Shown here: positions 1-46,265 of the stretch, in pieces
Numbering within the stretch: position 1 is the stretch's first letter
Layout of the letters: every line of letters begins with the position of its first letter
Source of the DNA: Patella caerulea
Lineage: Eukaryota
Length of the DNA stretch: 64,000 nucleotides
Assembly (NCBI GenBank): GCA_036850965.1
Contig: JAZGQO010000009.1
Span: 353,610-417,609, forward strand
Reading direction: 5' to 3'
Position numbers and translations under genes: made by a program
Notes under the pieces: generated by a model
The model's database searches: none
What the model was told of the DNA's origin: nothing
The model's input: only the letters and a program-made list of their open reading frames with translations

Positions 1-2125
1 ATGGACATTAACAAAATGTTTATCTGCGATAGATCAAATATGCAATAGCAAAAATTGATTAAAGAGAGATAGGACGTTGACCACACTTCATTTCCAAGCC
101 ATTGCTATGAATCTGAACATTAATTGTAAAACAATTGGTAAAGAATACACGGACTTTGAACCCCAATTCATTTCTAGGACAAAGCTGGACCAAAACAATC
201 CCGTACATTTTATTACCAATTAGGACGAAATCAAAGACAAAATTGACAAGTCCAGATGACAGAACAACAATTGGCGAAGACTAACACGATAAAACCACCT
301 GCAATGCCAGCTTATTAGATATATTCCCATGAACAATGGATTGAATAATGTATTATTTATAGCACTCTAAAATCTCTCATGCAGCTTTCATTTCTCAATA
401 ACTCACTTTCTTTCCTCGATAACTTATTCATAAAGAAAATATTTCTTCCTGCCAAGAGTGTTTTAGAATATAATTACCACAATAATTAGCCATATAATGA
501 ATCTAATTTAGTATTAATGGGATCTGTAGGATAAATGGCATATGTATATTTTATGAATGTCCTTGGGTGAAATTCTTTCAGCTTGAGCAGAGTTTTTTTG
601 GTCTGGAAATTAATAGAATTAGACGAAGTAGGCGAGAACAAACAGCAGATATCCTGGACATAATAACTGTCTAATTCACATGGATATTTGAACTTTCAAT
701 ATTTTATGCTGTTCAATTTTGATTCAAAGGGTTTTTTCTTCACATTTTTCAGTACTAGACCCTATACTTGACCCTTGTGGGCACCACGACACGTCTGTAT
801 ACGATTCTGGTACTTATACCGTAGAGGATATAATACGTCACAGTCTTGTTTTGTATAAATCAGAATTTTTTTGATTGTGAGATTAAGGTTGACAACAACA
901 AAACAAAACATTAGTTGACTTACATGTAGAACAGCATAACATTATACAGGTTGCCAGTACTCTTCTAATCTTCGTCACTGGTAGACCTTTCATTGACATC
1001 AATAGTATCATATTACATTTCCCAGAAGGCCTAATACTCTGTAATCGGGTTTTTAGCGACATAATCATCAGCCATTATAACAGTACATGAAGCAGTGTAA
1101 TAGCTCTCCCGGGAAATATCGTGTTTTACTTCGGCTACACAACTCTCTCAAAACATATCATTTAATAAAGAGCCTTGCAGTGTTTAACGTCAAGGCTACC
1201 ATTTTGTAACTTTAATTCGCCGTAATATAAGATCTCGCGTGTATTATTATGTATCGTTAAAGAACTAGGTCCGATCGAAATTACGCAATTTATCATAATA
1301 TATTTGTGACACGAAGCAACGTGTGTTTTATCATAGTTATTATCGACAAAAATTATAGGTTCAATGAAATTAATTGGTTCAACGTCTAAATTTTCTGAAC
1401 AAACTGGGCTAATGCCGCGCGCTGGTGAGGTAAACTAGTGGGGACGGACATGTTGCCCGCACATCGGCGCCACGGTCTACTCTTATATCGAATTCAATGA
1501 AATTAGGTTTCACGGCAGTATCATATTATATCTAACTTCGGCTTTATGACGTCATTGGAACTACTTTTAAGTTCCGGATTAAAAATGTTGGCGCCCATGA
1601 AGACGCCTTTGAAGAATGTTTAACTCAAGACACTGTATATTTATATGTACTTTCAAGTATGAAATGAAAACTCTCACACTCTTCAAGCGACGCCATTTTG
1701 AGCGGCAATTTCCTAATAAGTAAATCGGAAGCCACTATACAATTGTATGGGTTTAGCTACTGCCACACAGTCGATGCTATGTAGTCTACACGGCTAACCT
1801 TCTGAACAAGCTGTGCCAATGCAGCGTGATTTGGGGAAATTTTTCCACGGTCTACATTTTTTTTACAAAACGGTGGTTCACTCTTTTTTTAACGTTAAAT
1901 ACAGACATTATCTGAATTAATGCTTCTATCACCAAGCGAGCAATCTGTTTCAGAGAGAATTACTTACGAATTATATCTGTAACAGATGATTGTCCACCAC
2001 AACCCGTGCGTTAACTGCACGCGGCGGTAGTCATTGGCTCAACGGCTCGTGCAATGTTTACTTAACACCTAACTGCCTCGGGCAAAATGATGCATTTTAC
2101 TCATTTTAATACCCATTTACACTAA

Positions 2126-2572
2126 TGTGACAAAGTGATCTCTACATCATATTGAAATATAAATATACAGATAGAACTTTCTGACCTCTGCTGATTTTTG
2201 ATCATTAATGATATTGACGTGTTCAACTCGACACAACTTCTTCAAGGCACGGACTTAATAAAACATCTAATGTGTTCAATATGTTATTTACGGACTACAC
2301 ACGAATGGCCTCTGCTCGTTTTAACAAAAGGCACGATCTCATTAAATATGCAGTGCAGTTACAGATACTATAATCTCATAAATAAACAATGCCAAATATG
2401 TACATCGCTTGTGTATCACTTTTCTTAATTAATTGTATGCTTTATAAGCCAGAGTTAACTGTTAGTTTCAGAAGACTTGGAATGGCGCTCCTCCTGGAGT
2501 ATGCCTATTTCATGCTCTCAATAAAGGTCTATCAACTATGCTGATATTCTGTTATCTGTATATAGTGTTACA
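2126..2572 (+). repeat. 5' LTR (447 bp, TGTGACAAAG...GTGTTACA; AATAAA at 2523-2528 about 45 bp from the 3' end)
   Basis: Identical to 5110-5556. TG..CA termini with a short terminal inverted repeat (TGTGAC / GTTACA). Confidence 0.9.
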
Positions 2573-4750
2573 GATATCAGATTTGGATGCCGTGACCGTC
2601 CTGGGTCGTATCAGATTTGGCGCCGTGAATCAGTGAACCAGACAGAACGGGATCCAGTCCCATGAAGCCGCAGGCAATCTTGTTAGACAGAATTCTCCAG
2701 TTAATCTGCAAGTTGAAAAGATTTTGGTTCCATTAGTAATCAACCGGGATTGTTAATTACAATTAGTCAAGATATCAGATTTGGTTGCTGTGACCGTCCT
2801 GGGTGGTATCAGATTTGGATGCCGTGACTATATGAACCTGGGAGTGAATCGCCATACCAGCGGGAAGTCCTTAACGGTGATCATGGGCCAATAATTACAG
2901 CCACAGCCAGCAGTCATGGAATCACTGACGTCCGGGTTCGATCCCGGGAGGAAACCCTTGGAAGAAGAAGTTTCCAGTCGTTTTAAGGTAGGTGCATATT
3001 TCCTTGTAACTGACAATGGAACGCCAAAAATGACCAAGGGATAATTTAAATTTTTTTTTAAAGATTAGGGATTTGATCAATATAAAGTTTTCAAAAAAAA
3101 TGGCAAACTAGTAAATAATTTAGTTAAGTAAATAAGAGTTAGGTTTACATATGGGTAAAAAATTTCTATAAACGTCGGAATAGATAAGAATTCTAAAATT
3201 GAAACGGTATAACGACGCAAAAAGAAATACAATGCAGCCTCCGTTTTATAAGGTTATAGATCGTAATAATGTAATGTAGTGTTATGTCCAAATAATGTAT
3301 ATATATGTGTTTAACCAGGTTTGGTTAACGTGTGGATCTGTGTAAAATCCGTTTTTAAGTTTAGGGAAAAGGAAAATGCCCAAGGAAAATTTAAAACTTA
3401 ATGGCCCTTTGTGTGGGTTGGTATTAAGTTTTAAAAAAATGTTTAAATTGAAACTGGGTGCATTGCAATATATAGCGAGTAGCTTATGCAATATAACTGT
3501 TTCTGAGTTATTCGTGTTGTTTTGTTAAAAAATTATAAAGGAGAATAAGTTTTAAGTAATATTCAAACCAAAAACAAAGTATAACGTGGTAAAATGGATA
3601 ATTTAAAGTTGAATTTGAATGTGCGATTAGCTGTCGAATACATTTTGAATTACCTGATATGCCATGAGTAGTGTTGCGTAAAACTATACTAATGTATTGG
3701 AAACGTCAAGAATTGTAAATTGTTATTTTGTTATATGTGATAAATGTCAGGAATGTCATAACTTATGGATTATGGTTATCTATTTTATTTTACAACCAGG
3801 AGTATAATACAATTAGGGTCTTGAAATAAATACTGAACCCTTGGATTCTAGAAGCTGTTTCTCGTTTGAATGCAGAACGAAATGTTAATAGGGAGTATCT
3901 ATATGGACATCTCACACAGGCACATGTCTGTCTTTTCTGTTCTCAGCGTGTAAGATAGCACCCCTTGGCTACAAGCTTGTGATATATACACGAAGCTCTA
4001 TATAGCACCAATGTTAAGACGGGTTATAATCTTAACCTGTCAATGTCAATTAGTAAAGCAGACTACTAATGAATTTCAATGTTATTAATGACTTTAGGTG
4101 ATAAGTACTAATTAATACTGCTTATTTTTACTTAGGGGCAGATTAAATTCTATTGTTAATAGTTTATTCACTTAAAAGTAAATACAATTTTGATTTTAAA
4201 TAAACTTAAGTGTAAGAATATGATTAAGTATTATGACATCCAATTGAAATCAATGCTATAAATTAAGGGTAATGTAATTGTAATTGGTCTAATTTAGCAA
4301 GTACATTGATCATTTATGGGATTTATTGTACCTTATCTTAACGTACCCCAACGTTGAACCAGACCAGGGCATTCCAGTATGTCAAAAGCTATGACCCTCA
4401 AGCCCAGTTTGCAGAAGTGCCTACGTGCATCAAATTAGCTGTGCAAGAAAAAGAACAATTCTAACATGACCTGAACTTATTCAGTGGTGGCAACAGTGAA
4501 ATTATTGACATTGAAAAAGTGTTTTTTGATTTTTTTTTTCGGTTGGAACGTATAACCGAGTATTTATATTGAACTTATATTATTGTAGCGAGTATTTATA
4601 TTGAACTTATATTATTGTAGCATGTTTATCAATGTAATTGTTTTTATAGAATTAGGACTTGACTTTGTGATGTCCATATAAAATGTTTTCAAGTGTTGAT
4701 ATTGATATTGTATTGTATTTAATGTATGTTAGATAACGATAATTAAGGGG

Positions 4751-4852
4751 ATGGTGTCGGCTGAGACCGAGGACGAGAATACGCTCCATGGAACAGATGT
4801 TTCCACACCAGCACCAAGAAATAAACAAGTGTCATTCACTTTGTCATAATTA
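4751..4852 (+). pseudogene. env: env 3'-terminal remnant (last 33 codons plus stop) retained in the deleted element
   Basis: Translation MVSAETEDENTLHGTDVSTPAPRNKQVSFTLS* aligns to the C-terminus of the 647-aa env (MVSAETEDGNTFAGTDDSTPALRHNPVTLTLS). Downstream 3' UTR (4930-5060) is homologous to 58130-58260 (reverse complement). Confidence 0.75.
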
Positions 4853-5095
4853 ATCAAGAGGAATGCCAGAATTTAATGGTATGTTATCGTCCTACAAAAG
4901 TCTAGGACCTAGTGTTCCGAAAATATCATATAACTATATAATCGCGTGTGTTTTCATTACTATTATTATATCGTGTGTGCTCTTCTTAATTCGTGTGTGA
5001 TTTAACTTAATTGTGTGTACCTTCAATTGATATGAAGACAGTGTCCCACCTGTGAGAATGGTATTAGTTATTTATTTTTAATAAATAACTTAAAT

Positions 5096-5109
5096 GGGTG
5101 GGGATGGAA
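5096..5109 (+). promoter_or_regulatory. polypurine tract (plus-strand primer) GGGTGGGGATGGAA abutting 3' LTR
   Basis: Purine run immediately 5' of the LTR TG; the equivalent GGTGATGAAGGAA is present in the large element. Confidence 0.6.
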
Positions 5110-5556
5110 TGTGACAAAGTGATCTCTACATCATATTGAAATATAAATATACAGATAGAACTTTCTGACCTCTGCTGATTTTTGATCATTAATGATATTG
5201 ACGTGTTCAACTCGACACAACTTCTTCAAGGCACGGACTTAATAAAACATCTAATGTGTTCAATATGTTATTTACGGACTACACACGAATGGCCTCTGCT
5301 CGTTTTAACAAAAGGCACGATCTCATTAAATATGCAGTGCAGTTACAGATACTATAATCTCATAAATAAACAATGCCAAATATGTACATCGCTTGTGTAT
5401 CACTTTTCTTAATTAATTGTATGCTTTATAAGCCAGAGTTAACTGTTAGTTTCAGAAGACTTGGAATGGCGCTCCTCCTGGAGTATGCCTATTTCATGCT
5501 CTCAATAAAGGTCTATCAACTATGCTGATATTCTGTTATCTGTATATAGTGTTACA
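5110..5556 (+). repeat. 3' LTR (447 bp), identical to 2126-2572
   Basis: Exact sequence repeat; directly preceded by a polypurine tract. Confidence 0.9.
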
Positions 5557-6509
5557 CTAAATAGGAAATATGTTTTAACTACAAATACTTCAAACGTCTT
5601 TATTTATTTTTCTTTTACCTCAAAAAAATGTTTGAGAATTTAATTTGTCGGAGTAAAAAAGATAATATGCCGTACTCGTTAAGGCTCGTCGATGTCATGC
5701 TTATCAGTGATTGTAGCGGCCAAGCGAACATTCACTGCGGGATCAGTTTGCCAAGCGTGGTTTAACTCAGAACTTGGTCAAAGGGCCTGGTATAAAAACA
5801 GTGCCTAGTCCTTCGGAATGCGCTCAAAAGAACCCGGGCACTTTGAATTCGATGATGAGTAGACGGAAACATTGCTGTCCTGAAAAAATATTTCTTTCAT
5901 TACATACTGCATTACAAATTAATATGCCCATCTGCAGTTAGTCCTGAAAAATATTTCATTCATTGCATATTGCAATACATATTAATATGCCCATCTGCAG
6001 TACGTCCAGTAGGTGTTGAAACGTAAAGGTCAGATATTGTGGTGGTCAAGGATGATCAGTAATATGAATGAATAACAGGATTTATATGACTTGAATAATA
6101 CATATCTCATTTACACAGAACATATCAATTTTCACCTTAACGCTTATTATCTTACCGTTGAGTTCTCCCTAAACACCATTATTTTCCCTGATTTCAGCCA
6201 TCTTTATGATATTAGAGATTAATTATTGATAAGTTACTCTATAGCATCCTGTCCTTGACAATATTCCACTGTGAAATAATTTATAACAGTCTTACAATAA
6301 AAACTATGTGCTTAGTAATTATGTTTTCTGACTTTTATGTACCGAACAAAACCTCGTAATTATACGTACTGTTCTTTCTTGTAATAATATCACCCAACCC
6401 TCTCCCTCATCAAGATATTATGTCATTAAAACACAACGACAAATTATGTTATTGTTCTAAAAACAACATTACATATTTTGGTAGATATTGTTTTCCGTAC
6501 AACTATATC

Positions 6510-6690
6510 CGGGGGTGCTTAGCCCCTGTGACATGGTTGATTTTCATTTGCGTTTGCTTTGTTACTGATATAGTTCACATATCTGCTCTTTAATAGATGA
6601 TATAAACATCCAAGGTTGCAACGTGTTACCCTTTGTTCCAATGTATGCCCCACCCCCTCGACAAAATCCTGGATAGGGGCCTGCTATTGC
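6510..6690 (+). repeat. dispersed repeat (family D); inverted partner at 53710-53885
   Basis: GTTTGCTTTGTTACTG.T.TAGTTCACATATCTGCTCTTTAATAGATGATA.AAAC ... GGTTGCAACGT.TTAC..TTTGTTCCAATGT.TGCCCC.CCCC in both, opposite strands. Confidence 0.6.
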
Positions 6691-6721
6691 ATGTGGTGAG
6701 CGACTTCGAACATCGTCAATA

Positions 6722-6890
6722 ACATAGAATGGTTCGATAATTTTTAGACGGATATATGGTAATTTTTAGACAGATATATGGTAATGGTTAGACAAATATG
6801 TCGCAATTTGTTTAGACAAATCTGTCGAAATTTTATTTAGACAAATTTGTAGCAGTATGTAGACAAATATACTGTAATTCTTATTCAATG
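6722..6890. repeat. minisatellite, about 22-24-bp unit (TTTAGACAAATATGTCGCAATT), about 7 copies
   Basis: TTAGAC(A/G)(A/G)ATAT.TGG/TCG repeated head to tail. Confidence 0.7.
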
Positions 6891-7779
6891 TTAAAGGGTA
6901 CAACAAAGTGTGATATAATTTTCCCTGAGCAGTAGTATTTCTGCCCCCATACGTACCAGTTAAAATGACCGTATATCACAGGATCCACGGTGGTTAATTG
7001 GGTAAGACACTGGCTCGCCTGCCCAACGGCCATGAAGGATCCACTAGCTGTTGGAATTAGATATCAGAGAAGGCCTTAGCGTCGCTGTCCGAGCAAAATT
7101 TCCCAGTAGCACACTGTATGGTGTATGCCCGTCTTCTTTAGCGTAGCCAGAGCAGTAGGCTGTTTAAAAACTCAATTTCATTTCATTTTGGTATATGACC
7201 GACTAAAAGACCCAATAAAATATCGACAATGACAGGAAGAATATTGTGCTTTTCTTCAAAAGTTACCGTGACTTTGTTAATACGGTGTACAAACTTGTAC
7301 AAGTGCATATTGTAGAGTTGTAACTGATAGAACTGGGCTGAAATACGATGGAAACATTGTAAATAACCACCTTTGTGGTTATAAATGTTCGTTTCATATA
7401 ATTATTTGTCTAGAATTTGGGTTGTCTAAAGCCATTAATCCCAAGCTTTCTGTATTAGGTCTTATTATTTATTATACGTGGTCTGGGCATAATTTCTTGG
7501 TTGAAGACACGCAATGGAATTGTCGCACATCCTAAATAACGTCATGCTTTAATACATCAACCGAGATCATGAGGACATGCCCTTGTCATACGCTGTGGTA
7601 TCTGGGGGTGGTGGTGGGGTGCAGACAACTTTCATTCATTCCAACTGCCAAGGATTCTCTTACATTGGAAAATTTCAACAGCTCATTCAAAGTGTAATTT
7701 GATATTTTTTAAATATTATAATAGTTTTCATTATTATAATAGTAGCATCTCTATTAGATGAACGCCAATATAGGGACTC

Positions 7780-7960
7780 GACCAGGCGATATTCATTGCC
7801 TTGCCGTCCGCCCTGCACCATTTTACAGGGAAGCCATATTGAAAATTTCCGATGAATTCTCGTGGCCAACGCCGGGATCGAATCCGGAACGTTTGGGACA
7901 TTGAGCGTCACAACAACGACCAACACGTAAGGAAACATGGATCTGACAACCTGAGAATCT
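7780..7960 (-). repeat. possible tRNA-derived SINE head (B-box GGATTCGATCCCGGCG) on minus strand
   Basis: Reverse complement reads ...GTGTTGGTCGTTGTTGTGACGCTCAATGTCCCAAACGTTCCGGATTCGATCCCGGCGTTGGCCACG. Confidence 0.3.
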
Positions 7961-8954
7961 TTTGCGAGCAAGCCGGTTGTTTCACATCCAATCAGAAAGT
8001 ATTGTACCACTTCAGATGGGAATTCAGGCTAGAAATGTCGAAGTTAATCAACTACTAAAAAGGTCACGTGTTCTTGTCGAATTTCGTTATAATTCAACTA
8101 TTTTAATAATGAAAGAATGGTCTGAACGATCTGCCATGCAGCCCCCGAGATCTGACCAAAAGGTAATAAATAAAGCAGACGAAGAAGAATCTCAACAAGA
8201 TCAATAGCGTTTCACATCGAAACGGTGTGTAACCCTAAAAACATCACTGTTATTGCAATTGTTCAGCATCTATGGATCGACATTGATTTCCTAAAAGAAT
8301 CTGAGTAATAGAATAACCGAGCTATGATGGTAAAAATTACAAATTCATAGATTTATATCAAGATATATATATTTAATGATTAATATCAGACGACCGACAT
8401 TGAAACAATATCCGATGTAAGCGTTGCGTCACGGAGCAGACGAGATTCGAGCCATAAAGGAAATCATATCAAAAGAAAATGTCAAAGATATTAAGATTAA
8501 TTTGACCCTATTTAGTGGGGAATCAAGTAGTATTATCCCGTACATGAATCAAGCGCTTGTCTTTTAGAAATGTTGAGAGAGTAGGTCCAACGATGTCCAT
8601 TTTAATACCAGATTGATGCACGACTCACATAATAATAAACACAAAGGAGGACTAGTTTCTTTCAATAGTCTCTCTGGTCCTATACATAAAAACAAATATG
8701 TTTGCTTTAGGCTCAGATGGTAAGTTCTGGAAATGATCATTTTGGAGAGTATTGACAGAAAACCACATGGTAAATTATAAAGTAATGGTCTTTTGGGACT
8801 GGATTCCGTCTGTTAAGGGATTCTGGATGAACTTTGGCGTCTTCCAAAACACACATACAGACACAAATTGAGAGAAAAATAAAATAATTATTTCCCAATT
8901 TAAATCAGACGGAGACCAATTTGATGAAAAATTCAGTAATTGTTAAATTAATTA

Positions 8955-9395
8955 TTAATCATTTTAGTATGCAACGGAGTCGTGAAGTCTCCTGACTGCC
9001 CACACTTTTTTAAAAAATGTTTTAAAGGGAACCTGTAATATCTTTGTTATTTGGTTTAGTTGGTTGCTTAGCCGCTAAGTCTCCTGGTTGTCAACACATT
9101 TTTGTGTTTATTTTTTTTTTCATTGTTAAAACAAAGCTTAAAGGGACACGGCGGTGTCATCTATTCTATTTTGTTCAGGTCGCTGTCAACACAATTTTTA
9201 ATAATTTATATTTATTAAGACAGTGCTTAAAGGGAAATTGTGGAATCAGCTATTTTTTAGCCGTCAAGTCTCTTGGCTGTCACCGCATTTTGTTTAAATT
9301 AAAATGTTTAGTTCGCTATCGAGTCGTAATGTCTTGTTGCTGTCAACACATTTTGTAATCATACCAGAGCTTAAAGGGACACAATAATCTCTTCG
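8955..9395. repeat. tandem repeat, about 80-90-bp unit, about 5 copies (GTCGCTGTCAACACAATTTT...CTTAAAGGGACAC)
   Basis: Recurrent AAGTCTCCTG.(C/T)TG(T/C)CAACACATTTT and GCTTAAAGGGA(C/A)A motifs at about 8985, 9070, 9180, 9255 and 9330. Confidence 0.6.
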
Positions 9396-9409
9396 TTGTG
9401 AACATAACA

Positions 9410-10415
9410 TAAATATTTGTCGTTTTAGAGTGAATAACATATTTTATTTCATCGAGAAGCAAGAAAACTTATATACTCTTCAAAAAAAGAAACGCACAAC
9501 TCATTTTTCATCAATGTTTTGTTTGAACGAGGTCGTTGTTTCGGTAAATCTTACTTGTTTTCAATGCCATTATGTAAGGATAAAAGAAATTCATTATTGA
9601 TTTTAAAGGTCGGGTCACTAATTGTGACTGGTCATCCTTTTTGTCGAAATTTGTTATCGCTTGATTACACCAAGAAACATGAATTTAACTACTTCGCGAG
9701 TTTTTCGCATGGAACCTATATCTAACGTCTTTAAAATCCCGGGGTTCTCGGTTTCCAAATCAGTTGCACATGTAAACATTCGACGAACCAAATGATGTCA
9801 CATCTGAACGAAGACCAACACAACAACGCTATTGGGCGATTACAAGCAGGTGAACCCAAGATAGATGTAGCCAGGCTGCTGAATGTTTCTCTTGGTTCCA
9901 TTTCTCGCCTTTGGGATGGGTACCCACAACAAAGTTCAACACGTTACCGCCCTAGCTCAGGCCAAACAAGAGTGACCCCACCTGCCCTGGATCGTCACTT
10001 CCGGTTACGTCATTGGCGTAAATGGTTTTCTCAACAGCGACCTCTACTGCAGCAGCAATTCCCGGACAACGTAGAACCTCGTACTAGACAGTAGGTAAAC
10101 GCCTACGTGAAACCGAATAACGAGGCAGACGTCCCCGTTAGAGCTTCTGTTTTGAAATACGCCAACACCTTGAGATCCAACTTTAATGGATCAGGCACTG
10201 ACGGTATGGACATAGCAACACTGGAGAGAAGTTTGGTTCAGCGACGTGTCGCGGTTCTTGTTGCAACAAGGATATACCGACGACGAAATGTAACTTTGCG
10301 TTTCTTTTTAGGGAGAGTATATTTTCACGAATGCGCAGCATGAGTGAAAATATAAACGTTTTCTTGCTTAGAGATGAAATAAAATATGTTATTCACGACA
10401 AAACGACAAATGTTC
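9410..10415 (+). mobile_element. internally deleted Tc1/mariner-like element with approximately 62-bp terminal inverted repeats
   Basis: Left TIR 9413-9476 AAATATTTGTCGTTTTAGAGTGAATAACATATTTTATTTCATCGAGAAGCAAGAAAAC. Reverse complement of 10349-10413 gives AACATTTGTCGTTTTGTCGTGAATAACATATTTTATTTCATCTCTAAGCAAGAAAAC. Confidence 0.7.
9792..10094 (+). pseudogene. Tc1-like transposase N-terminal HTH/paired-like DNA-binding region only (catalytic DDE domain deleted)
   Basis: The 100-aa ORF shares the pattern L.......A.G.LQ.G......AR..NVS...ISRLW..Y......RP.SG..R.T....DR with the N-terminus of the Tc1-like transposase at 56283-56591(-). Confidence 0.6.
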
Positions 10416-10860
10416 TATTTATTTTATGATTTTACAATCATTTTAGGTAAAACATGGACAACTTTGCTAGCCAGTGGAATAACACTTTTATTTCACTGAT
10501 AAAACGCGGTATTCCACTACTGATCATAAAATAAAAGGAAATATTGGAATCTACAATCATGGTTTATTTAGTATCATTTACAGGAAATAAATTGGTTCAG
10601 TGCCCCACTCGTCAGCACAATACTTCGAACATCTTGAGTTTATTTCGTTCTATGGTCACGTGTGCCCGAACAGGTGCCTTTCCGCCCCTCTCCTGTTTAT
10701 CGAATTCAAACTCTCATGGGCGCCCGCACCCACTTGGATAATCCGCCTGTGACCAGCATCATGAAATGTTTGTTAACCAATCATAAAGAAATTGTGGCTT
10801 CAATATTAACATAGATTGGAATAGGGAAAAACAACCGCCAAGGTCGACCAACCACCGTTC

Positions 10861-14100: not shown

Positions 14101-14859
14101 AAGAAGGGCATACGCTATAGGGTATTTTGGTTCCACGAAAGGTGTTCAGTTTATTATAGAAATTCTTTACCTTCATGACGTGTGACGAAAACTAGAGTAA
14201 AGAGGTAGCTTGCATCATTCTACTACTATCTTGGCCTAACTCACAGACAGTTATGTCAGTATCCATTTCTGGAAAGTAGGGTACTATCATCCAGTCATCT
14301 CGTGCACGGATTAGTACAATTAAATAGAATAAGGATGATATAAAACGGCGCCTATATTAAATACTTACCCCAAAATTGGCCCGACCTAAATAGATGACGC
14401 AATGTACTTTTTATAGGAGAGAGCTGGGTTGATTTACCTCAGACATCATAGAGGGTCCGAGAGAGGAGCATCATAGCCTCCTGGGCTTAAGGGGCTAGAG
14501 TGAACGCATTATCCTAGCGCGGACATTATGTAGAACCATCAACATTAAACTCACACCATGGATATTTAAATAACGACTAAAGTAACTACCATATATATTG
14601 TAGTTTTCTGTATGTAACCTTGGTATTTGCTGTATTCGATTCATAAACACAGTAACAACATAAACGGTGTCCCAGAGTCAGTTACTTGAAGATTGGAATA
14701 ATTGATATCACAACGTGAAGTCGAAGAAAGGTCTAGACGTCACAGTCACGTCAGACACCGTAGTGTCATATGTGCTATGTGACAAAGTAATTTATACATA
14801 GAACTTTGCTAGATTTGACATTATATTATATTGGACGTTTTCAACTATATACAACTTCT

Positions 14860-17800
14860 GCTACTCGTTATTCGATAGTCAAACTTGAATATCAAAAAAG
14901 CAGATTTGATGGATGTTTATCTACAGAATGTTTCCATGACACATTTGATTAAATGTGTGATCTAAAACGAACTAAAGATATCATAATTCAGGATGCCTGA
15001 GCAGTGGATTCACATAAAAACTGCTTTTTCTCCTTGTTTTTTGATATTGGCGAATCTCAAAAAACGAGCCACTCGTTTTTCGATATTCAAACTCGAATAT
15101 CAAAAAAGCAGATTTGATGGATGTTTATCTACAGAATGTTTAAATTGACACATTTTATTAAATGAGGGTTCTAAAATGACACATTTGATTAAATGTGTGA
15201 TCTAAAACGAACTAAAGATATCATAATTCAGGATGCCTGAGCAGTGGATTCACATAAAAACTGCTCTTTCTCCTTGTTTTTTGATATTGGCGAATCTCAA
15301 AAAACGAGCCACTCGTTTTTCGATATTCAAACTCGAATATCAAAAAAGCAGATTTGATGGATGTTTATCTACAGAATGTTTAAATTGACACATTTTATTA
15401 AATGAGGGTTCTAAAACGAACTAAATACATCATAATTGGTGATTCACATAAAAACGGCTCTTTCTCCTTGTTTTTTGATATTGGCGAATCTCGAAAAACG
15501 AGCCAGTTGTTTTTCGATATTCAAACTTGAATATCAAAAAAAGCAGATTTGATGGATGTTTATCTACAGAATGTCTAAATTGACACATTTTATTAAATCA
15601 GTGATCTAAAACGAACTAAATACATCATAATTGGGGATGCCCGAGCAGTGGATTCAAATAAAAACTGCTCTTTCTCCTTGCTTTTTGATATTGGCGAATC
15701 TCGAAAAACGAGCCACTCGTTTTTCGATATTCAAACTTGAATATCAAAAAAGCAGATTTGATGGATGTTTATATACAGAATGTTTAAATCGACACAATTT
15801 ATTAAATGAGTGATATAAAACGAACTAAATACATCATAATTGGGGATGCCCGAGCAGTGGATTCACATAAAAACTGCTCTTTCTCCTTGTTATTTGATAT
15901 TGGCGAATCTCGAAAAACGACCTATATCAAAAAGGCAGATTTGAAGGATGTATATCTACAGAATTTCTCCAAAACACATTTTATTAAATCAATGATCTAA
16001 AACGAACTAAAAATATCATAAGTGAAGATGCCTGAACAGTGGATTCACATAAAAACTTTTCTTTCTCTTTGTTTTTTGATATTGGCGGATCTCAAAAAAC
16101 GAGCCACTCGTTTTTCGATATTCAAACTTGAATATAAAAAAAAAAACAGATTTGATGGATGTTTATATACAGAGTGTCTAAATTGACACATTTGATTAAA
16201 TGGGTTATCTAAAACGAACTAAATACATCATAATTGGGGATGCCCGAGCAGTGGATTCACATAAAAACTGCTCTTTCACCTTGTTTTTTTGATATTGGCG
16301 AATCTCGAAAAACGAGCTACTCGTTATTCGATATTCAAACTTGAATATCTAAAAAGCAGATTTGATGGATGTTTATCTACAGAATGTCTCCATGACACAT
16401 TTGATTAAATTAGTGATCTAAAACGTACTAAAGGCATCATAATTGAGGATGCCGGGGCAGTGGATTCACATAAAAACTTTCTTTCTCCTTGTTTTTTGAT
16501 ATTGGCGAATCTCGAAAAACGAGCTACTCGTTTTTCCATATTAAAACTTGAATATCAAAAAAGCAGATTTGATGGATGTATATCTTCAGAATGTCTCCAA
16601 AATACGTTTTCTAAAACGAACTAAAAATATCAATTGAGGATGCCTGCCTGAGCAGTGGATTCACATAAAAACTTTTCTTTCTCGTTGTATCTATTTCATT
16701 TTAGTTCACCGATTTAATCAGATGTGTTTTGGAGACTTTCTTTAGCTACACATCCATCAAATCTACTTTTTTGATATTCAAGTTTGAATATCGAAAAACG
16801 AGTGGCTCGTTTTGCGAGATTCCCCAATATCAAAAACAAGGAGAAAGAGAAGTTTTTATGTGAATCCACTGCTCAGGCATCCTCAATTATGATATTTTTA
16901 GTAAGTTGTAGATCACTAATTTAATCAAATATGTCATGGAGACATTCTGTAGATAAACATCCATCAAATCTGCTTTTTTGATATTCAAGTTTGAATATCG
17001 AATAACGAGTAGCTCGTTTTTCGAGATTCGCCAATATCAAAAAACAAGGAGAAAGAGCAGTTTTTATGTGAATCCACTGCTCGGGCATCCCCAATTATGA
17101 TGTATTTAGTTCGTTTTAGATCACTCATTTAATAAATTGTGCCACGGAGACATTCTGTATATAAACATCCATCAAATCTGCTTTTTTGATATTCAAGTTT
17201 GAGATTCGCTAATATCAAAAAAACAAGGAGAAAGAGCAGTTTTTATGTGAATCCACTGCTCGGGCATCCCCAATTATGATGTATTTAGTTCGTTTTAGAT
17301 CACTCATTTAATAAAATGTGTCAATTTAGACATTCTGTATATAAACATCCATCAAATCTGCTTTTTTGATATTCAAGTTTGAATATCGAAAAACGAGCCA
17401 CTCGTTCGTTTTAGATCACACATTTAATCAAATGTGTCATTTTAGAACCCTCATTTAATAAAATGTGTCAATTTAAACATTCTGTAGATAAACATCCATC
17501 AAATCTGCTTTTTTGATATTCGAGTTTGAATATCGAAAAACGAGTGGCTCGTTTTTTGAGATTCGCCAATACAAAAACACAAGGAGAAAGAGCAGCTTTC
17601 ATATATGAATCCACTGCTCGGGCATCCCCAATTATGATTTATTTAGTTCGTTTTAGATCACTCATTTAATAAATTGGGTCATGGAGACATTCTACAGATA
17701 TACCTCCATCAAATCTACTTTTTTGAGATTCAAGTTTGAATGTCGAAAAACAAGTAGCTCGTTTTTCAACATTCGCCAATATCGAATAACGAGCTAGTTG

Positions 17801-26159: not shown

Positions 26160-26795
26160 CTGGGGGCTTAACGTCCTACTTTGCGGCACCAATTTGGAAG
26201 CGGGTGCGCGAATAGAGTTTAACGTCCTTTAAGCACACACCAGGTCATTTCGAGGAGAAAACCGGTGGACCAAGGGGAACCCAGGGGGCTGGACAGGTGA
26301 CCATATGTACAAGGTGGTAATCTAAACCAGGCCACTTGACCTCAAGAGCAGACATGACGATCTTCAGTGCACGTGGTAAGCCATTCAGCCACCTAAGCCC
26401 CTAAGGCCATTTGGGTAATGAAGACTGCGGGCATACGTCATGATATGAATTGAATTTTGCCTACTTTACGTGTGGACCCCCAACAACTTATATTCTAGAT
26501 TCCGTTTGGCTAGTGGTCTAGAGTGCCGCGCTTCGACCTCTAGCTGGCCGGTCACCTCTGGCTTGCGGCTGTGGTTTCGAGCCCTGGTGTGAGCGTATGT
26601 GGCATGGAGATAGGGGCGCCTTCTCAACCTAGTAGGTTTCCTCCGGGTACTCCGATTTCCTACCACTGCTAAAGACCCCTACGCGCAAGCGAATTACTGA
26701 AATAAAATTAAACCATATGTTAGTCCCGAAATGACTTAGTTTGTGTTGAGTGGACGTTAAACCCCATTTCTCTCTCTCTCTCTCCATTTGCCTTG
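26160..26795 (+). mobile_element. composite element: family B 5' terminus (GGGGCTTAACGTCCTAC..., 26160), internal insertions, then a family A SINE (26505-26795) providing the matching inverted terminus
   Basis: 26160 GGGGGCTTAACGTCCTAC versus 26750 GTGGACGTTAAACCCC. Also shares GGTAATGAAGAC.GCGGGCATACGTCATGA with the 50887 element. Confidence 0.45.
26505..26795 (+). repeat. tRNA-derived SINE (family A): tRNA-like head with A and B boxes, then a body ending GAGTGGACGTTAAACCCCATTTC + (TC)n
   Basis: Head GGCTAGTGGTCTAGAGTGCCGCGCTTCGACCTCTAGCTGGCCGGTCACCTCTGGCTTGCGGCTGTGGTTTCGAGCCC (B-box GGTTTCGAGCC). Other copies at 32553-32830, 34043-34285(-), 46005-46265, 44693-44930, 43690-43865 and 40425-40700. 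Confidence 0.7.
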
Positions 26796-28490: not shown

Positions 28491-31400
28491 TGAGACGAAA
28501 ATGCAGCTTGATTTTCAGCGAGTCGTGATTGCTTTAGATCAGTTAAATTCATGATATTACATGTTTTGTATACTAAACCTTAGCATCAGGTCAGACGAGT
28601 TCTAATGATTTATGATAATTACTTAATGGGCATTATATACTCTTAATCAGATTTTAGTGTCTAGTACCAAATGCTTTAATTATAGTCAAAGATATTCGAC
28701 AACCCGTATGTTGTGTGTGTATGTTTAGTTGTTTGGCAACCTACCTTGATACTGGCAACCAATATACGCACGCTGAATTTTGTACCAAATTAAATCAAAT
28801 ATCAACCTTGTACACGCTAATATAACACACGATTCTAATATTACCATGCTGAAATGTCGCCGTGGACAGTGCCAGCAAAATATACTAAACAAACGAAACA
28901 AAACACGTATTAAGAATCTATCGATGAAGACTGTAAAAGTGGTTTTCTTGTGATTTTAGGGAACTAGCCACTAAAGATATAAACAAAATAACACCATCGT
29001 CAAATATCCCCCGGATCTGCACCTGAGCTCTTTCACATCCCAGTAAGTCGACCTTGTCTGGCTATTTTATCACAAAGATTCCAATATCACAGAAGACTGG
29101 TTTCTGCAAATTAGCCAGAAGTCCTTTAAATTACTAGCAGACGACATCGTTTATCTTAATTTAAAATGAACTTGTGACCATTATACAGCTGGCATCATGG
29201 CGGGTAATTTCCAACCTAATGTCGATCAGGAAAGAAATGGTGACTTTGTATACGGCTGCCTATTATAAAACTCTAATAGTCAATCCTCCGCTCTGATGAA
29301 ATGTTCAGCAATGAAAAGAAATGGGGTTTAACATCCTACTTTTTCACACCCACGTGATATCGTCCAGCCTGTACAATTGACAAAATAAAACCATCCCGAG
29401 GGATGTCCTCGGTCTGCGCCATACTGAATATTATCTCGTATGTAAGCCCAGATTTTCAAGTTCAAATTCAAAACAGTTACTCTATTTAGCTTCCAATATA
29501 GTGACATAGTTAAAGTTCCAATAGCATATTTTTAAGTTATATTTTTTAAATGTATTAAAATAAAGCCTTAAAATAGATTGTATCTATAAACAGTCCTACC
29601 TTGTTAAAGAATAATCCTATAATTCACTATTGCCAGTTTAGAAATTGGCAAAAATATCATTTTCAACTTCAAATTCAAACGTTTGAAGATGGCCGTCCAT
29701 TGAGAGGAATGGGAAAACAAGGGAGGTAATTGAGATACTATTTCCTCAATCAGTCTGTGTCAGCCATTTTAACGCCTATGAAATTTTGCCCATGATCGTA
29801 TAATAGGGAGTTGACAACCTTTTGAGCAAAAGACATAGAAATAATTATGTTTTGACTTTCTTAGAAAATATGAAATTGGAACTTTAATGCTTTTTCTTTC
29901 CAGAACAGATGATACTGGATTGTTATGGCGAACATTTCTGCTTGGTCTATTTTTTAATTTCTAATGAAACATACGTTTATTAAACATGCATTATGCAAGA
30001 GCAATATCTACCAATTACGGGTCTTTCTTGAGGCTTGAAATGTTATCTAAATTAACAATTAACTTATCCAGACCACAATGAACTCCCGATGTCAAAGCTA
30101 GCCTTCGATGTTAGCTGGATTGGATTCATATATGCCGCTGAACGGTAATTGAAATTAAATTAAAAAAAAATGAATAATCGAGATTATGCTGTTTATATTA
30201 ATGATTTTAGTAATGATGACCGAGAATAGGCAGAAATTTAACCCGCTTTGTTCTCGGCTCATAGTGGATTAATTTGACTGAAATTTTCAGCAAATTACCA
30301 TTACATTATCTAGTTTTTAACTTTTATAACGAGAACTGCCAACTCTTTATCTTATCTCCCATAATGTATCTTTAAATGTTACACACAGTTTGATGTGGGG
30401 ACCGGATGCGGCCCAGTGGGTTTGACAATATGTCGCAAGGTCACTAACCAGGCGGTTCAACATTCAAATTTTTTAAAATTTGCCAGCATTGTTTCTTCTT
30501 GTCTAGCAATGTGGTAAAAAGCGACGTACCAGTTATACCTACTCGAAATAAAAAAAAATAGGTGGTAGTGAAATATGGAAGGGTATCGCTGCCAATATTA
30601 AATGCTATGCTAAAATGTCTTTTCCGTTGATTATATGTAAAAAGTACAATGTACAAAGTCACTAACCCCGTAATGATAAAGTCAAAATACCTCTAAAGCC
30701 AAAGTTAAATGTGAAACGACAAAATGTAATGTGTCAAATGACAAATGTTTTAATGCAAAATGCTGTTCTTAGACATTTCTACATTTTACATTTTTCTCAT
30801 TACAAATCACATTTGCGCTCTGCCACATCTCATTTGTCATTCACGCTTTCTTTTTATCAACTTGCGCATAGCATCTTCTTAAATATCCAAATATAGTATG
30901 CCACGTGACTTATTAACATAAATACGGAAAAGACCGATCTTTCTTTAAATAAAAATATGAATAATTGTTCCAAAGGAAAGATATCTCAGTTAACGCGCCA
31001 TTAGTTGTTTTTCTTTTTAAATTATTTATATATGTTTGTGCTGGTAAAAGGAAAATATAACTTTTTGTTGAATCTAAAAATATGAGCATCCTGACCAATT
31101 TCCTCCCCGAATTAGTAAACATTTATTGATGTTTGTGAAAGGTTTAAAGTAGCTAAGTCTCTAACTCAATGTCATCCAAAATCTTCAACATCGAAAACAC
31201 GAATTATTTGTCAATTTAAATCAACAATTCATGGCCGTGATCTTACCGGAAAAAGATGGACTTCTGATATCCAATATTTAAGACACAATACAAATTTTAC
31301 CATTGGTACACGAATCGTATACAATAAAGCGTTTCAAACCAAGTTCGAGGAAAGAGGCTAGAAACAAATCAAACGGCGTGTGTAGACTGGAATAACCAGA

Positions 31401-32552
31401 CGCTAGAAATTTGCATTCGATTGAGACTACTGACTTATTTCGCTGAACATAACTTTGAAATAAGAGTAAAAACGGAAACCATTGAATTTAAATCAGTTTA
31501 TATACATTCATGTTACATTATTATATGCGTTGCGACTCTCTTATGTCAATTTGTAGGTCCCAAATCAAATGTTAGCGATTTAGCTCCTTTAAACTAATCG
31601 CAATTTTGAAAAATAATTAATGACACTTAACAGGAACAGGATAATGAAAGGACGGAGAAGCCAGGGAATTTTTTTATCCGTTGTGATTGTCATAATATAG
31701 ACCTCGACAATATTTACTTATTAGGCCTATACATGTATTAATTTTTCACTTACCTGTGTTATGTATAATACGGTATCAATAATTATATTATAAATGTGTG
31801 AGAGAGAGAAATGGGGTTTAACGTCCACTCGACACAAACTAGGTCATTTCGTATGGAAGGGTATCGCTGCCAATATTAAATGCTCTGCTAAAATGTCTTT
31901 TCCATTGATTATATGTAAAAAGTACAATGTACAAAGTCACAATACCGGTAATGATAAAGTCAAAATACCTCTAAGGACAAAGTTAAATGTAAAACGACAA
32001 AGTAATGTGTCAAATGACAAATGTTTTAATGCAGAATGCTGTTCTTTGACATTTCTACATTTTACATTTCTCTCATAACAAATCACATTTGCGCTCTGCA
32101 ACATCTCATTTGTCATTCACGCTTTCTTTTCATCAACTTGCGCATAGCATCTTCTTAAATATCCAAATATAGTATGCCACGTGACTTATTAACATATATA
32201 CGGAAACATCCGATCTTTCTTGAAATAAGAATATGAATTATTTCTCCCAGTTAACGTGCTGCCATTCTTCAGTTGACTTCATGCCATTCATGGGTTCTTT
32301 AGCTAACAATTGAGTTGACCTCAGTTGTTTGTCCCGTACTAGGAGAAACCTTCTCGGCCAATACAGGTCGAGCCGTAAGCCCAAATGGTTTCATGCGTGT
32401 AGAATCTCTTATCATTATTCCACTTTCTAATATTTTGTTTTCGTAAGATTATATAAAATGAAGGAGGTCAAAGACAAAATATAGTACTGCGGCTGTGCCA
32501 CTATGGACATACAGATCATATATATTCATACATTTATAATGGGGGGGGGGGT

Positions 32553-32830
32553 GGAATGGCCTAGTGGTCTAGAGTGCCGCGCTTCGACCTCTAGCTTGCC
32601 GGTCACCTATGGCTTGCGGCTGTGGTTTCGATCCCTGGTGTGAGCGTATGTGGCATGGAGATAGGGCGCCTTCTCAACCTCGTGGGTTTCCTCCGGGCAC
32701 TCCGGTTTCCTTCCACTGCTAAAGACCCCTACGCGCATGCGAATTATTGAAATAAAAATAAAACATGTTAGTCCCGAAATGACCTAGTTTGTGTCGAGTG
32801 GACGTTAAACCCCATTTCTCTCTCTCACAC
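32553..32830 (+). repeat. SINE family A copy (complete), at the centre of the 30574-34990 duplication block
   Basis: Same head, body and tail as 26505-26795; preceded by a G11 tract. Confidence 0.7.
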
Positions 32831-34042
32831 ATTTATAATATAATTATTGATACCGTATTATACATAACACAGGTAAGTGAAAAATTAATACATGTATAGG
32901 CCTAATAAGTAAATATTGTCGAGGTCTATATTATGACAATCACAACGGATAAAAAAATTCCCTGGCTTCTCCGTCCTTTCATTATCCTGTTCCTGTTAAG
33001 TGTCATTAATTATTTTTCAAAATTGCGATTAGTTTAAAGGAGCTAAATCGCTAACATTTGATTTGGGACCTACAAATTGACATAAGAGAGTCGCAACGCA
33101 TATAATAATGTAACATGAATGTATATAAACTGATTTAAATTCAATGGTTTCCGTTTTTACTCTTATTTCAAAGTTATGTTCAGCGAAATAAGTCAGTAGT
33201 CTCAATCGAATGCAAATTTCTAGCGTCTGGTTATTCCAGTCTACACACGCCGTTTGATTTGTTTCTAGCCTCTTTCCTCGAACTTGGTTTGAAACGCTTT
33301 ATTGTATACGATTCGTGTACCAATGGTAAAATTTGTATTGTGTCTTAAATATTGGATATCAGAAGTCCATCTTTTTCCGGTAAGATCACGGCCATGAATT
33401 GTTGATTTAAATTGACAAATAATTCGTGTTTTCGATGTTGAAGATTTTGGATGACATTGAGTTAGAGACTTAGCTACTTTAAACCTTTCACAAACATCAA
33501 TAAATGTTTACTAATTCGGGGAGGAAATTGGTCAGGATGCTCATATTTTTAGATTCAACAAAAAGTTATATTTTCCTTTTACCAGCACAAACATATATAA
33601 ATAATTTAAAAAGAAAAACAACTAATGGCGCGTTAACTGAGATATCTTTCCTTTGGAACAATTATTCATATTTTTATTTAAAGAAAGATCGGTCTTTTCC
33701 GTATTTATGTTAATAAGTCACGTGGCATACTATATTTGGATATTTAAGAAGATGCTATGCGCAAGTTGATAAAAAGAAAGCGTGAATGACAAATGAGATG
33801 TGGCAGAGCGCAAATGTGATTTGTAATGAGAAAAATGTAAAATGTAGAAATGTCTAAGAACAGCATTTTGCATTAAAACATTTGTCATTTGACACATTAC
33901 ATTTTGTCGTTTCACATTTAACTTTGGCTTTAGAGGTATTTTGACTTTATCATTACGGGGTTAGTGACTTTGTACATTGTACTTTTTACATATAATCAAC
34001 GGAAAAGACATTTTAGCATAGCATTTAATATTGGCAGCGATA

Positions 34043-34285
34043 CCCTTCCATAATTTCGGGACTAACATGTTTTATTTTTATTTCAATAATTCGCATGCGC
34101 GTAGGGGTCTTTAGCAGTGGAAGGAAACCGGAGTGCCCGGAGGAAACCCACGAGGTTGAGAAGGCGCCCTATCTCCATGCCACATACGCTCACACCAGGG
34201 ATCGAAACCACAGCCGCAAGCCATAGGTGACCGGCAAGCTAGAGGTCGAAGCGCGGCACTCTAGACCACTAGGCCATTCCACCCC
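34043..34285 (-). repeat. SINE family A copy, tail-truncated at the duplication junction
   Basis: Reverse complement of 32553-32775; followed by a C11 tract. Confidence 0.65.
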
Positions 34286-44692: not shown

Positions 44693-44930
44693 GATGGCCG
44701 AATGGTATGGCATTGAGCCAACTGGCGTGGTTTCTTATCCCCGGTGACAAGGAGTAGGATCGCCTGTTCAACCCCTTGGGGTCTTCCGGTTTTTCCACTG
44801 CTAACGACCCCTGCGCGCAACCGAATTATTGAAATAAAAATTCAACCATGTTTTGGTCACGAAATTACCTAGTTTGTGTCGAACGGACGTTAAACTCCAT
44901 TTCCCTCCTTCTCTTTCACACACAATTATA
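44693..44930 (+). repeat. SINE family A-related copy (different head, same body and tail ...GAACGGACGTTAAACTCCATTTCC)
   Basis: Shares CCGGTTT.TCCACTGCTAA.GACCCCTGCGCGCAA.CGAATTATTGAAATAAAAATT.AACCATGTT...GAAAT.ACCTAGTTTGTGTCGA. Confidence 0.55.
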
Positions 44931-46004: not shown

Positions 46005-46265
46005 GGATGGCCTAGTGGTCTAGAGTGCCGCGCTTCGACCTCTAGCTGGCCGGTCATCTCTGGCTTGCGGCTATGGTTTCGAGCCCAGGTGTGAGCGTAT
46101 GTGGCATGGAGATAGGGGCTCCCTCTCAACCTCGTGGGTTTCCTCCAGGCACTCCGGTTTCCTCCACAGCAAAGACCCCTGCGCGTGCGCTAAGATAATG
46201 GAAATAGAAAAAATAAGACTTGTCTGCGATATCACCTTCGGTGGAAGCGGACGTTAAACACCAAG
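46005..46265 (+). repeat. SINE family A copy with variant 3' region (GCGGACGTTAAACACC + (CAA)n)
   Basis: Head GGATGGCCTAGTGGTCTAGAGTGCCGCGCTTCGACCTCTAGCTGGCCGGTCATCTCTGGCTTGCGGCTATGGTTTCGAGCCC. Confidence 0.65.

Follow-up and report, generated by a model that had tools for sequence, protein, structure and literature searches.

Non-coding long terminal repeat (LTR) retroelements are known from several biological systems. The large retrotransposon derivatives (LARDs), reportedly a component of Triticeae genomes, and the terminal-repeat retrotransposons in miniature (TRIMs), both of which are said to have been accommodated in the classification of transposable elements, possess LTRs, a primer-binding site (PBS), a polypurine tract (PPT) and a non-coding internal domain, and are mobilised in trans by an autonomous partner. 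LARDs are plant elements exceeding 4 kb, whose LTRs are very long and whose conserved interior is present in multiple copies, while TRIMs are shorter than 1 kb. Mouse VL30 and defective retroviral genomes are likewise non-coding LTR retroelements that have retained the signals for packaging and priming and travel in the particles of an env-bearing helper, and their patchwork interiors arise by template switching of the reverse transcriptase (RT). Furthermore, env-carrying Ty3/gypsy elements with an F-type Env, so-called ‘ancient errantiviruses’, have been described in non-insect metazoans, including Mollusca (Chary & Hayashi, eLife 2026, RP108449 / PMC13524379). In the current analysis, a 64,000-nucleotide stretch of the Patella caerulea genome (contig JAZGQO010000009.1, positions 353,610 to 417,609, forward strand; hereafter ‘the window’) was found to contain, at 2126-5556, an element with a total length of 3,431 bp. 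This element is likely to represent a non-autonomous LTR retrotransposon of the Ty3/gypsy lineage with a baculovirus-F-type env, which inserted recently, was mobilised in trans and probably belongs to a propagated non-coding lineage. Its components are as follows.

2122-2125, plus strand: left copy of the target-site duplication (TSD), CTAA, the same as 5557-5560
2126-2572, plus strand: 5' LTR, 447 bp, TGTGACA...TGTTACA, with TATAA at 2443 and AATAAA at 2520
2573-2639, plus strand: leader block A, which carries a pair of tRNA-His-like PBS motifs
2718-2759, plus strand: isolated pol-derived patch (protease/pre-RT region), encoding DFGSISNQPGLLIT
2770-2838, plus strand: leader block B, which repeats block A in diverged form (87% identical to 2572-2639)
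2839-2989, plus strand: leader-like segment, GC-richer (about 45-50%)
2990-4743, plus strand: AT-rich non-coding interior, 30% GC, depleted of C on the sense strand
4745-4849, plus strand: remnant of the env cytoplasmic tail, with an open reading frame (ORF) at 4751-4849 of 32 aa plus stop
4850-5091, plus strand: 3' untranslated region (UTR), homologous to the provirus 3' UTR by alignment and BLAST
5092-5109, plus strand: PPT-like AAATGGGTGGGGATGGAA, adjoining the 3' LTR
5110-5556, plus strand: 3' LTR, 447 bp, identical to the 5' LTR
5557-5560, plus strand: right copy of the TSD, CTAA

The two LTRs were compared base by base and exhibited no mismatch over 447 bp, and CTAA was found directly outside both of them, a four-nucleotide match with a chance probability of approximately 0.005 in a window of 36.6% GC. 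Both the identity of the LTRs and the CTAA duplication had been claimed in a first-pass annotation of this stretch, and both are confirmed here. The identity ends sharply at 2572/5556 on the right side, and its extension by two nucleotides on the left side is due solely to the AA with which both the TSD and the PPT terminate. Of the structural features by which LTR retrotransposons are recognised, paired LTRs with TG...CA ends, a short TSD and a PPT abutting the 3' LTR are thus present, and tracts similar to the PPT-like AAATGGGTGGGGATGGAA precede the LTR in a related provirus situated elsewhere in the window (57457-64000) and in a relative from Argopecten irradians (L016, see below). When the 64-kb window was searched with the joined flanks of the putative empty site, carrying a single CTAA (…CATTTACACTAAATAGGAAAT…), no paralogous empty site spanning the junction was found.

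Given identical LTRs and an intact TSD, the insertion appears to be recent, in agreement with the first-pass annotation. With zero differences in 2 x 447 bp, t lies below 3/(2 x 447 x µ) at the 95% level, or below roughly 0.3-3 million years for assumed rates (µ) of 1e-8 to 1e-9 per site per year. The identity of the LTRs could alternatively be due to gene conversion, or to collapse during assembly or polishing, rather than to recency, as 0/447 differences taken alone would fit either cause and as the window holds other perfect long repeats (arms of 1281 nt and 929 nt, 100% identical, at 30571-34981). However, the TSD is intact, the LTR boundaries are sharp to the base and the assembly runs gap-free through the unique interior that separates the LTRs; we consider such an origin very improbable, and the element would be an LTR retrotransposon in either case.

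The affiliation of the element was derived from its comparison with the related provirus, the relevant features of which are listed below.

57457-64000, minus strand: env-bearing Ty3/gypsy provirus, of which the 3' two-thirds lie in the window, defined by its domains, ORFs and LTR
60433-63996, minus strand: provirus pol, comprising protease (PR), RT, RNase H (RH) and integrase (IN) in the order PR-RT-RH-IN, with one in-frame stop at 61195-61197
58407-60350, minus strand: provirus env, an ORF of 647 aa
57457, minus strand: end of the provirus 3' LTR

Pfam searches identified RVT_1, RT_RNaseH, Integrase_H2C2 and rve domains in the order typical of Ty3/gypsy elements within the 61195-63996 section of pol. 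The integrase C-terminus carries on in frame at 60433-61146, past the single stop at 61195-61197(-) (…LKPRRKY*GEEFHQ…), after which the frame is open for 253 more codons, and env is intact. The 5' part of the provirus, which would comprise ~2.5 kb of the autonomous element including the leader, gag and protease, lies beyond the window. The provirus env returned 73 homologues, mostly labelled PF12259 (Baculo_F) or ‘envelope fusion protein’, from Lottia, Argopecten, Mytilus, Haliotis, Mercenaria, Dreissena and marine metagenomes, with best identities of 39-52%. The env protein itself had no Pfam match at E<=0.001, the PF12259 label being derived from its homologues. Judged by its domain order and these homologues, the provirus is a predicted Ty3/gypsy element; its env is of the baculovirus-F type and has molluscan relatives. 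On the basis of the env homologues alone, the host would very probably be placed among the molluscs or their close relatives. Exact-protein look-ups with the provirus env and one LTR ORF recorded no other copies in public assemblies.

Positions 4744-5556 of the element (813 bp) are colinear with provirus positions 58512-57457, encompassing the env tail, 3' UTR, PPT and LTR, as indicated by both BLAST and alignment. The LTRs of the two elements are identical in their first 14 nt and last 10 nt, and they exhibit one 83-nt block of 94% identity, 74% identity across the last ~230 nt and several large indels, while the TATAA and AATAAA motifs of the element LTR are also conserved in the provirus LTR. 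In the 3' UTR, repeated TCGTGTGTG motifs are common to both, as is a 25-nt invariant block at 5038-5062. This patchy identity with large indels substantiates the previous assertion that the two LTRs are homologous yet diverged and represent distinct subfamilies, and assignment of element and provirus to different subfamilies of the same family appears to be a fair reading. The alignment of 4744-5556 and of the LTRs to a provirus with RT-RH-IN order and F-type env homologues places the element in the Ty3/gypsy F-env clade. The 83-nt block is located in an otherwise indel-rich U3 (2267-2349 in the element, 57748-57830 in the provirus) and may be a conserved regulatory block. A 21-mer common to both LTR subfamilies had no match in metagenome and viral contigs; an apparent match in a Verrucomicrobiota single amplified genome was dismissed as a 23-nt chance match by BLAST.

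The provirus thus resembles the errantivirus-like elements in possessing RT-RNaseH-IN followed by env and in having molluscan PF12259 env homologues. The element has the LTR ends, PPT, 3' UTR and env tail of the provirus, and a putative tRNA-complementary PBS near its 5' LTR. In contrast, the catalogue of RP108449 is one of intact GAG-POL-ENV copies, whereas the element has lost gag, pol and env. The main text of RP108449 makes no mention of tRNA-His or of non-autonomous derivatives. From these sequence comparisons, the element would best be filed as a biologically ordinary non-autonomous member of the mollusc F-env Ty3/gypsy group.

The lack of gag, pol and env coding capacity, which had been recognised previously, is corroborated by several results. 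ORFs in the element reach 69-76 aa at most, stops occur throughout all frames of 2573-5109, and a six-frame search of this region on both strands with stops masked returned no Pfam family at E<=1. Furthermore, tblastn searches with the gag, pol and env of relatives matched nothing in the element except two short remnants, i.e., the pol patch and the env tail. The latter is indeed the stub of 33 codons that had been reported, since the ORF at 4751-4849, which has 32 codons and a stop, corresponds in alignment to the C-terminal 32 aa of the provirus env (58407-60350, minus strand). Fifteen of its 99 nt differ from the provirus, distributed 5/5/5 by codon position and resulting in ten nonsynonymous and two synonymous codon changes, and the stub therefore does not appear to be conserved as a peptide. 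The breakpoint had been placed exactly at the env Met, which proved incorrect: the env-side homology starts at ~4745, six bases before the ATG (TAAGGgGATGG in the element, TAAGGaGATGG in the provirus).

The cis-acting parts, in contrast to the coding regions, have been kept, namely two LTRs with motifs resembling a promoter and a polyadenylation signal, a leader with PBS-like motifs and, at the 3' end of the internal region, ~360 bp comprising the env tail, 3' UTR and PPT. As the element encodes no Gag, protease, RT, RNase H, integrase or Env, its RNA would have to be packaged, reverse transcribed and integrated by proteins supplied in trans, presumably those of an intact relative. In both LTR ends (14 nt and 10 nt) and in the PPT, the element resembles the provirus family, whose integrase and RT should thus recognise it. 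The earlier suggestion of mobilisation in trans by a relative such as the provirus is in agreement with the absence of coding capacity, although this particular provirus, with its integrase stop and with its 5' half outside the window, is a doubtful candidate for the helper. The identical LTRs suggest that some env-bearing Ty3/gypsy member supplied working Gag and Pol recently in this genome, and the element would illustrate what suffices in cis: LTRs, a leader with a His-type PBS and ~360 bp of the 3' end.

Downstream of the 5' LTR, the motif TATCAGATTTGG(N1-2)GC[CT]GTGA was found in four copies (2575, 2609, 2773 and 2807), consistent with the first-pass annotation, these being two sub-copies in each of leader blocks A and B. 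In block A, the first motif (TGGaTGCCGTGACC, with TGG at 2584) is separated from the LTR by 11 nt and carries a 1-nt insertion, while the second (TGGcGCCGTGAa, with TGG at 2618), which is the copy highlighted in the first-pass annotation, lies at a distance of 45 nt, contains no indel and matches the tRNA-His complement at 10/12 positions. The block B motifs are TGGtTGCtGTGACC (TGG at 2782) and TGGaTGCCGTGACt (TGG at 2816). The 3' end of human tRNA-His reads ...GTCACGGCACCA / …GAGTCACGGCACCA as printed in PMC6675128. The sequence TGGTGCCGTGAC, which is present in perfect form in some relatives of the element, is the exact complement of the tRNA-His 3' end. The tRNA-His acceptor stem is conserved among animals. 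The relatives, which were fetched via their env and gag proteins, are listed below with the spacer that separates the LTR end from the PBS.

Metagenome contig, full-length (L004), 99-122: spacer of 12 nt after the LTR end, PBS TGGTGCCGTGAC
Metagenome contig, upstream of gag (L009): spacer of 24 nt, PBS TGGTGCCGTGAC
Metagenome contig, upstream of gag (L011): spacer of 13 nt, PBS TGGTGCCGTGACCAGGAT
Metagenome contig, upstream of gag (L007): spacer of 9 nt, PBS with one mismatch to TGGTGCCGTGAC
TARA scaffold (L003), 3794-3820: spacer of 12 nt, PBS TGGTTGCCGTGACC
Haliotis rubra (L015), 4663-4709, LTR pair 97.7%: spacer of 29 nt, PBS TGGTGCCGAGACCAGGAT
Argopecten irradians (L016), 4796-4828, LTR pair 97.1%: spacer of 12 nt, PBS TGGTGCATGTGACCAGGATCC

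In all seven relatives, the tRNA-His-complementary PBS is located 9-29 nt beyond the LTR end (…ACA), and not 0-5 nt from it. The exact LTR boundaries were fixed by LTR pairs in three cases, i.e., the Patella element (2573-2596), H. rubra and A. irradians, the LTR ends of the latter two being TGTTACA and TGTAACA, respectively. On this comparative evidence, the repeated motif is a putative degenerate PBS of the tRNA-His type, an assignment that would change if the host tRNA ended ...GGCATCCA or ...GGCGCCA. Its displacement from the LTR appears to be normal for the clade and not a by-product of the leader duplication. The motif had previously been proposed as a possible tRNA PBS, duplicated and displaced; it is indeed tRNA-His-like and lies in a duplicated leader, although its displacement is not unusual given the clade norm of 9-29 nt.

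According to the standard replication scheme, a spacer of this kind is expected at the right-hand terminus of the linear cDNA, from which it would need to be trimmed. The PBS spacing raises a small mechanistic question regarding cDNA end processing. Priming of the Tf1 type, in which the spacer TATCAGATT would self-prime, was dropped, as only a 7-nt complement (CTGATAT, 2541-2547) is present in U5. LTR annotation tools with a default short PBS-LTR offset are in use, and a PBS 9-29 nt from the LTR could be missed by tools of this type. If anything in the system is mildly unusual, it is solely this clade-wide displacement of the tRNA-His PBS, which leaves the view of retroelement biology unchanged. 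Splice-donor-like sites, AAAG|GTAAGT or AAAG|GTTAGT, were observed in the relatives L003 (3838-3850) and L004 (144-156), 25-30 nt past the PBS and before the gag ATG, which would fit the use of a donor in the leader to produce a spliced env mRNA. The Patella element carries a donor-like AAG|GTAGGT (2985-2993) ~160 nt past its last PBS-like motif, in the segment 2839-2989, for which a leader function may be inferred.

The interior of the element is a patchwork. The 68-nt leader block at 2572-2639 recurs at 2770-2838 with 87% identity, the second copy starting where the first base after the LTR would correspond. Between these copies, and thus out of order, lies the 42-nt pol patch (2718-2759), which is 90% identical to provirus positions 63882-63843 (DFGSISNQPGLLIT versus DFGFISNQPGLLIS) and both flanks of which are unrelated to the provirus. 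Relaxed blastn against the provirus yielded 48 bits for this patch against a shuffle-control maximum of 32.6 bits, rendering it the sole interior match above noise. The ~1.9 kb at 2840-4743 had no match to the visible 6.5 kb of the provirus in the same shuffle-controlled search, nor to any Pfam or Rfam family. In addition, tblastn searches of the interior with 73 env or gag-env homologues, and with gag, PR-RT, RH-IN, ORFx and env of the relatives L003 and L004, returned nothing, and the element exhibited no DNA similarity to the Lottia, Haliotis, Argopecten and metagenome relatives, the distance of which (63-69% in pol) is too great for them to stand in for the absent 5' part of the helper. 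The interior also contains a perfect tandem repeat of 2 x 32 bp at 4557-4620. The proposal that the element is a deletion derivative consequently holds in so far as it is non-autonomous and related to the provirus. A simple deletion is not supported by the sequence, as only the 813-bp 3' part and the 42-nt pol patch match the visible part of the provirus and as the interior, with its duplicated leader, pol patch and ~1.9 kb of unmatched sequence, is too scrambled.

It is conceivable that this interior is foreign, being host sequence captured by read-through or template switching (transduction), or a set of nested unrelated repeats. The lack of any match among the provirus, the relatives and the protein families would be in line with such an origin, as would the sharp fall in GC content at ~2990 and a tRNA T-arm-like 21-mer at 2931-2951 in the leader-like segment, where an ATG at 2916 and the donor-like AAG|GTAGGT at 2985-2993 were also noted. 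This 21-mer (TCCGGGTTCGATCCCGGGAGG) has the look of a T-arm (B-box) in sense orientation and is unique in the window. However, ARAGORN called no tRNA in the element, and Rfam searches at E<=10 returned no tRNA, short interspersed nuclear element (SINE) or other RNA family, with only noise-level matches to snoRNAs; a tRNA-derived SINE nested in the interior was therefore rejected. No poly(A) tail was seen, only short AT-rich low-complexity inverted repeats are present, no terminal inverted repeats occur at the boundaries read, and reading of these boundaries (without a systematic search) disclosed no internal TSD. Furthermore, no second copy of any interior segment is present in the window, the composition and skew of the interior match those of the provirus 3' UTR and not those of the surrounding genome, and the unseen leader, gag and protease of the autonomous element could also have been its source. 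A foreign interior is accordingly regarded as rather unlikely.

The strand composition of the interior bears on its history. The sense strand of 2990-4743 contains 11.9% C and 18.1% G, corresponding to a GC skew of +0.21, whereas the skew reached at most 0.13 among 204 same-size background windows, none of which attained 0.2. The non-coding 3' UTR of the provirus likewise has a skew of +0.21, in contrast to its coding regions, which do not display such skew. This C depletion favours, without proving, a long non-coding history on a transcribed strand over recent capture of average host DNA. In addition, the two leader copies differ by 13% and the LTRs by 0%, and repeats generated in the same cycle would be expected to be equally identical; the leader duplication thus probably arose long before this insertion, and the rearranged architecture had probably been copied before. 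Together, the divergence of the leader copies and a C depletion like that of the provirus 3' UTR suggest that this architecture is older than the insertion and was propagated as a non-coding lineage of the LARD or VL30 kind. An origin from spliced RNA, using the donor-like site at 2987/2988 and an acceptor-like TTAG at 4732, was also considered. The donor-like site is intact, and the element was therefore not copied from an RNA spliced there; the in-frame junction has a 1-in-3 probability by chance, and this candidate was dropped.

The same features could, in principle, describe a one-off defective copy, in which the rearrangements arose in a single round of reverse transcription, for example from co-packaged RNAs of two subfamilies, with no propagating lineage involved. 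The presence of a single copy in 64 kb and the resemblance of the leader/pol patch/leader arrangement to template-switching products are consistent with this, and heterologous parents could give 87% leader identity without elapsed time. A ~1.9 kb interior that is dissimilar to the visible 6.5 kb of provirus and devoid of coding remnants is, however, hard to obtain in one step, and the strand-specific C depletion suggests a long non-coding history, such that a one-off event seems doubtful.

Several points weigh against a trans-mobilised, propagated non-coding lineage, which nevertheless remains the favoured reading. Only one copy of the interior and of the LTR subfamily is present in the 64-kb window, and the lineage is thus argued indirectly; the possibility that the leader copies stem from two parental subfamilies joined in one recombination could remove the age argument altogether. 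All four PBS-like motifs deviate from the tRNA-His complement, by a 1-nt insertion or by two mismatches. The sole related provirus in view, 52 kb off, has an intact env and a stop in its integrase, and is therefore a doubtful helper. Moreover, the 5' ~2.5 kb of the autonomous element (leader, gag and protease), from which 2640-2717 and 2840-4743 might derive, is situated outside the window.

The replication of the favoured trans-mobilised element can be outlined from the established LTR-retroelement cycle. Transcription would start in the 5' LTR and end at the poly(A) signal of the 3' LTR, and the RNA would be packaged in particles of an intact relative. Minus-strand synthesis would be primed by tRNA-His at a leader motif and plus-strand synthesis at the PPT, following which the integrase of the family, recognising the common LTR ends, would integrate the cDNA and generate the 4-bp CTAA duplication. 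The patchwork itself (leader, pol patch, leader, unmatched sequence, env tail) probably resulted from several template switches or deletions during reverse transcription. It is tempting, albeit quite speculative, to go further and regard the element as one copy of an active, long-lived VL30-like lineage that could travel in the enveloped particles of a helper between cells or individuals, with tRNA-His priming 9-29 nt beyond the LTR throughout the clade and in the element as well. If so, the PBS spacing would need an integrase that trims unusually long 3' cDNA tails, or a non-standard mode of priming.

Comparison with the known non-coding systems reveals both parallels and differences. Similar to LARDs, TRIMs and mouse VL30, the element would act as a non-coding passenger of an autonomous LTR element, with LTRs, PBS-like motifs and a PPT; in contrast to LARDs and TRIMs, it is an animal element of 3.4 kb that keeps recognisable fragments of its partner (pol patch and env tail). 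Its total of 3,431 bp and LTRs of 447 bp fall outside the size definition of LARDs sensu stricto, and it is far larger than a TRIM. It is distinguished from VL30 by belonging to the Metaviridae rather than the Retroviridae and by being known from sequence alone. The description of the element is of use for repeat annotation in molluscs and for dating the activity of the recently described non-insect errantivirus-like elements.

Internally deleted relatives do occur in the same clade, as exemplified by the pol-less L003, which retains gag and env. Its env is 38% identical to the provirus env, and it is similar to the Patella element in its LTR end, its tRNA-His-like PBS behind a 12-nt spacer, the 1-nt insertion in its PBS (TGGTTGCCGTGACC) and its internal deletion. 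Unlike the Patella element, it has intact gag and env ORFs and has lost only pol, and its interior has no DNA similarity to that of the element. L003 (TARA_SAMEA6041341 scaffold_2577, 427-10759) consists of two 5,197-bp units that are 99.98% identical, each composed of an LTR, a gag of 272 aa (Ty3_capsid), unassigned sequence of ~1.1 kb and an env of 664 aa (Baculo_F), while pol is absent. L003 represents a gag+env-only derivative, either in tandem or wrapped round its LTR by the assembler.

Additional features were observed in and around the provirus. A tandem duplication of ~110-117 bp (91% identical) at 57848-58074(-) spans its PPT and the first ~70 nt of its 3' LTR, giving rise to two PPT+TGTGACAAAGT junctions, at 58023 and 57913. 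Just beyond the provirus 3' LTR, ORFs at 55799-56591(-) have weak paired-box/helix-turn-helix Pfam matches (PAX, HTH_32, HTH_38 and HTH_29), a pattern that would be typical of the N-terminus of a Tc1/mariner-like transposase. A truncated LTR start of the provirus type (TGTGACAAAGTAATTT…), 94% identical over 90 nt, is located at 14778-14866(+) and adjoins a large array of a ~208-bp repeat (14829-17793), which is partly arranged in inverted blocks.

Further repeats were observed in the window. The perfect repeats at 30571-34981 form two pairs that are 100% reverse-complementary in the order A-B-rc(A)-rc(B), with A arms of 1281 nt and B arms of 929 nt, an arrangement that could stem from a foldback-type element, from inverted duplication or from an artefact of the assembly. 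At 37139-38638, at least nine copies of 61-92% identity form a tandem array of ~145/292-bp period, and a 168-aa ORF overlaps this array, probably by chance. Finally, short dispersed repeats ending …GTGGACGTTAAACCCCATTTCTCTCTCTC were found at 26510-26778, 32561-32826, 46012-46218, 43796-43857 and 44850-44911, in 3-5 copies with 77-97% identity, and this family may be a SINE or a miniature inverted-repeat transposable element.

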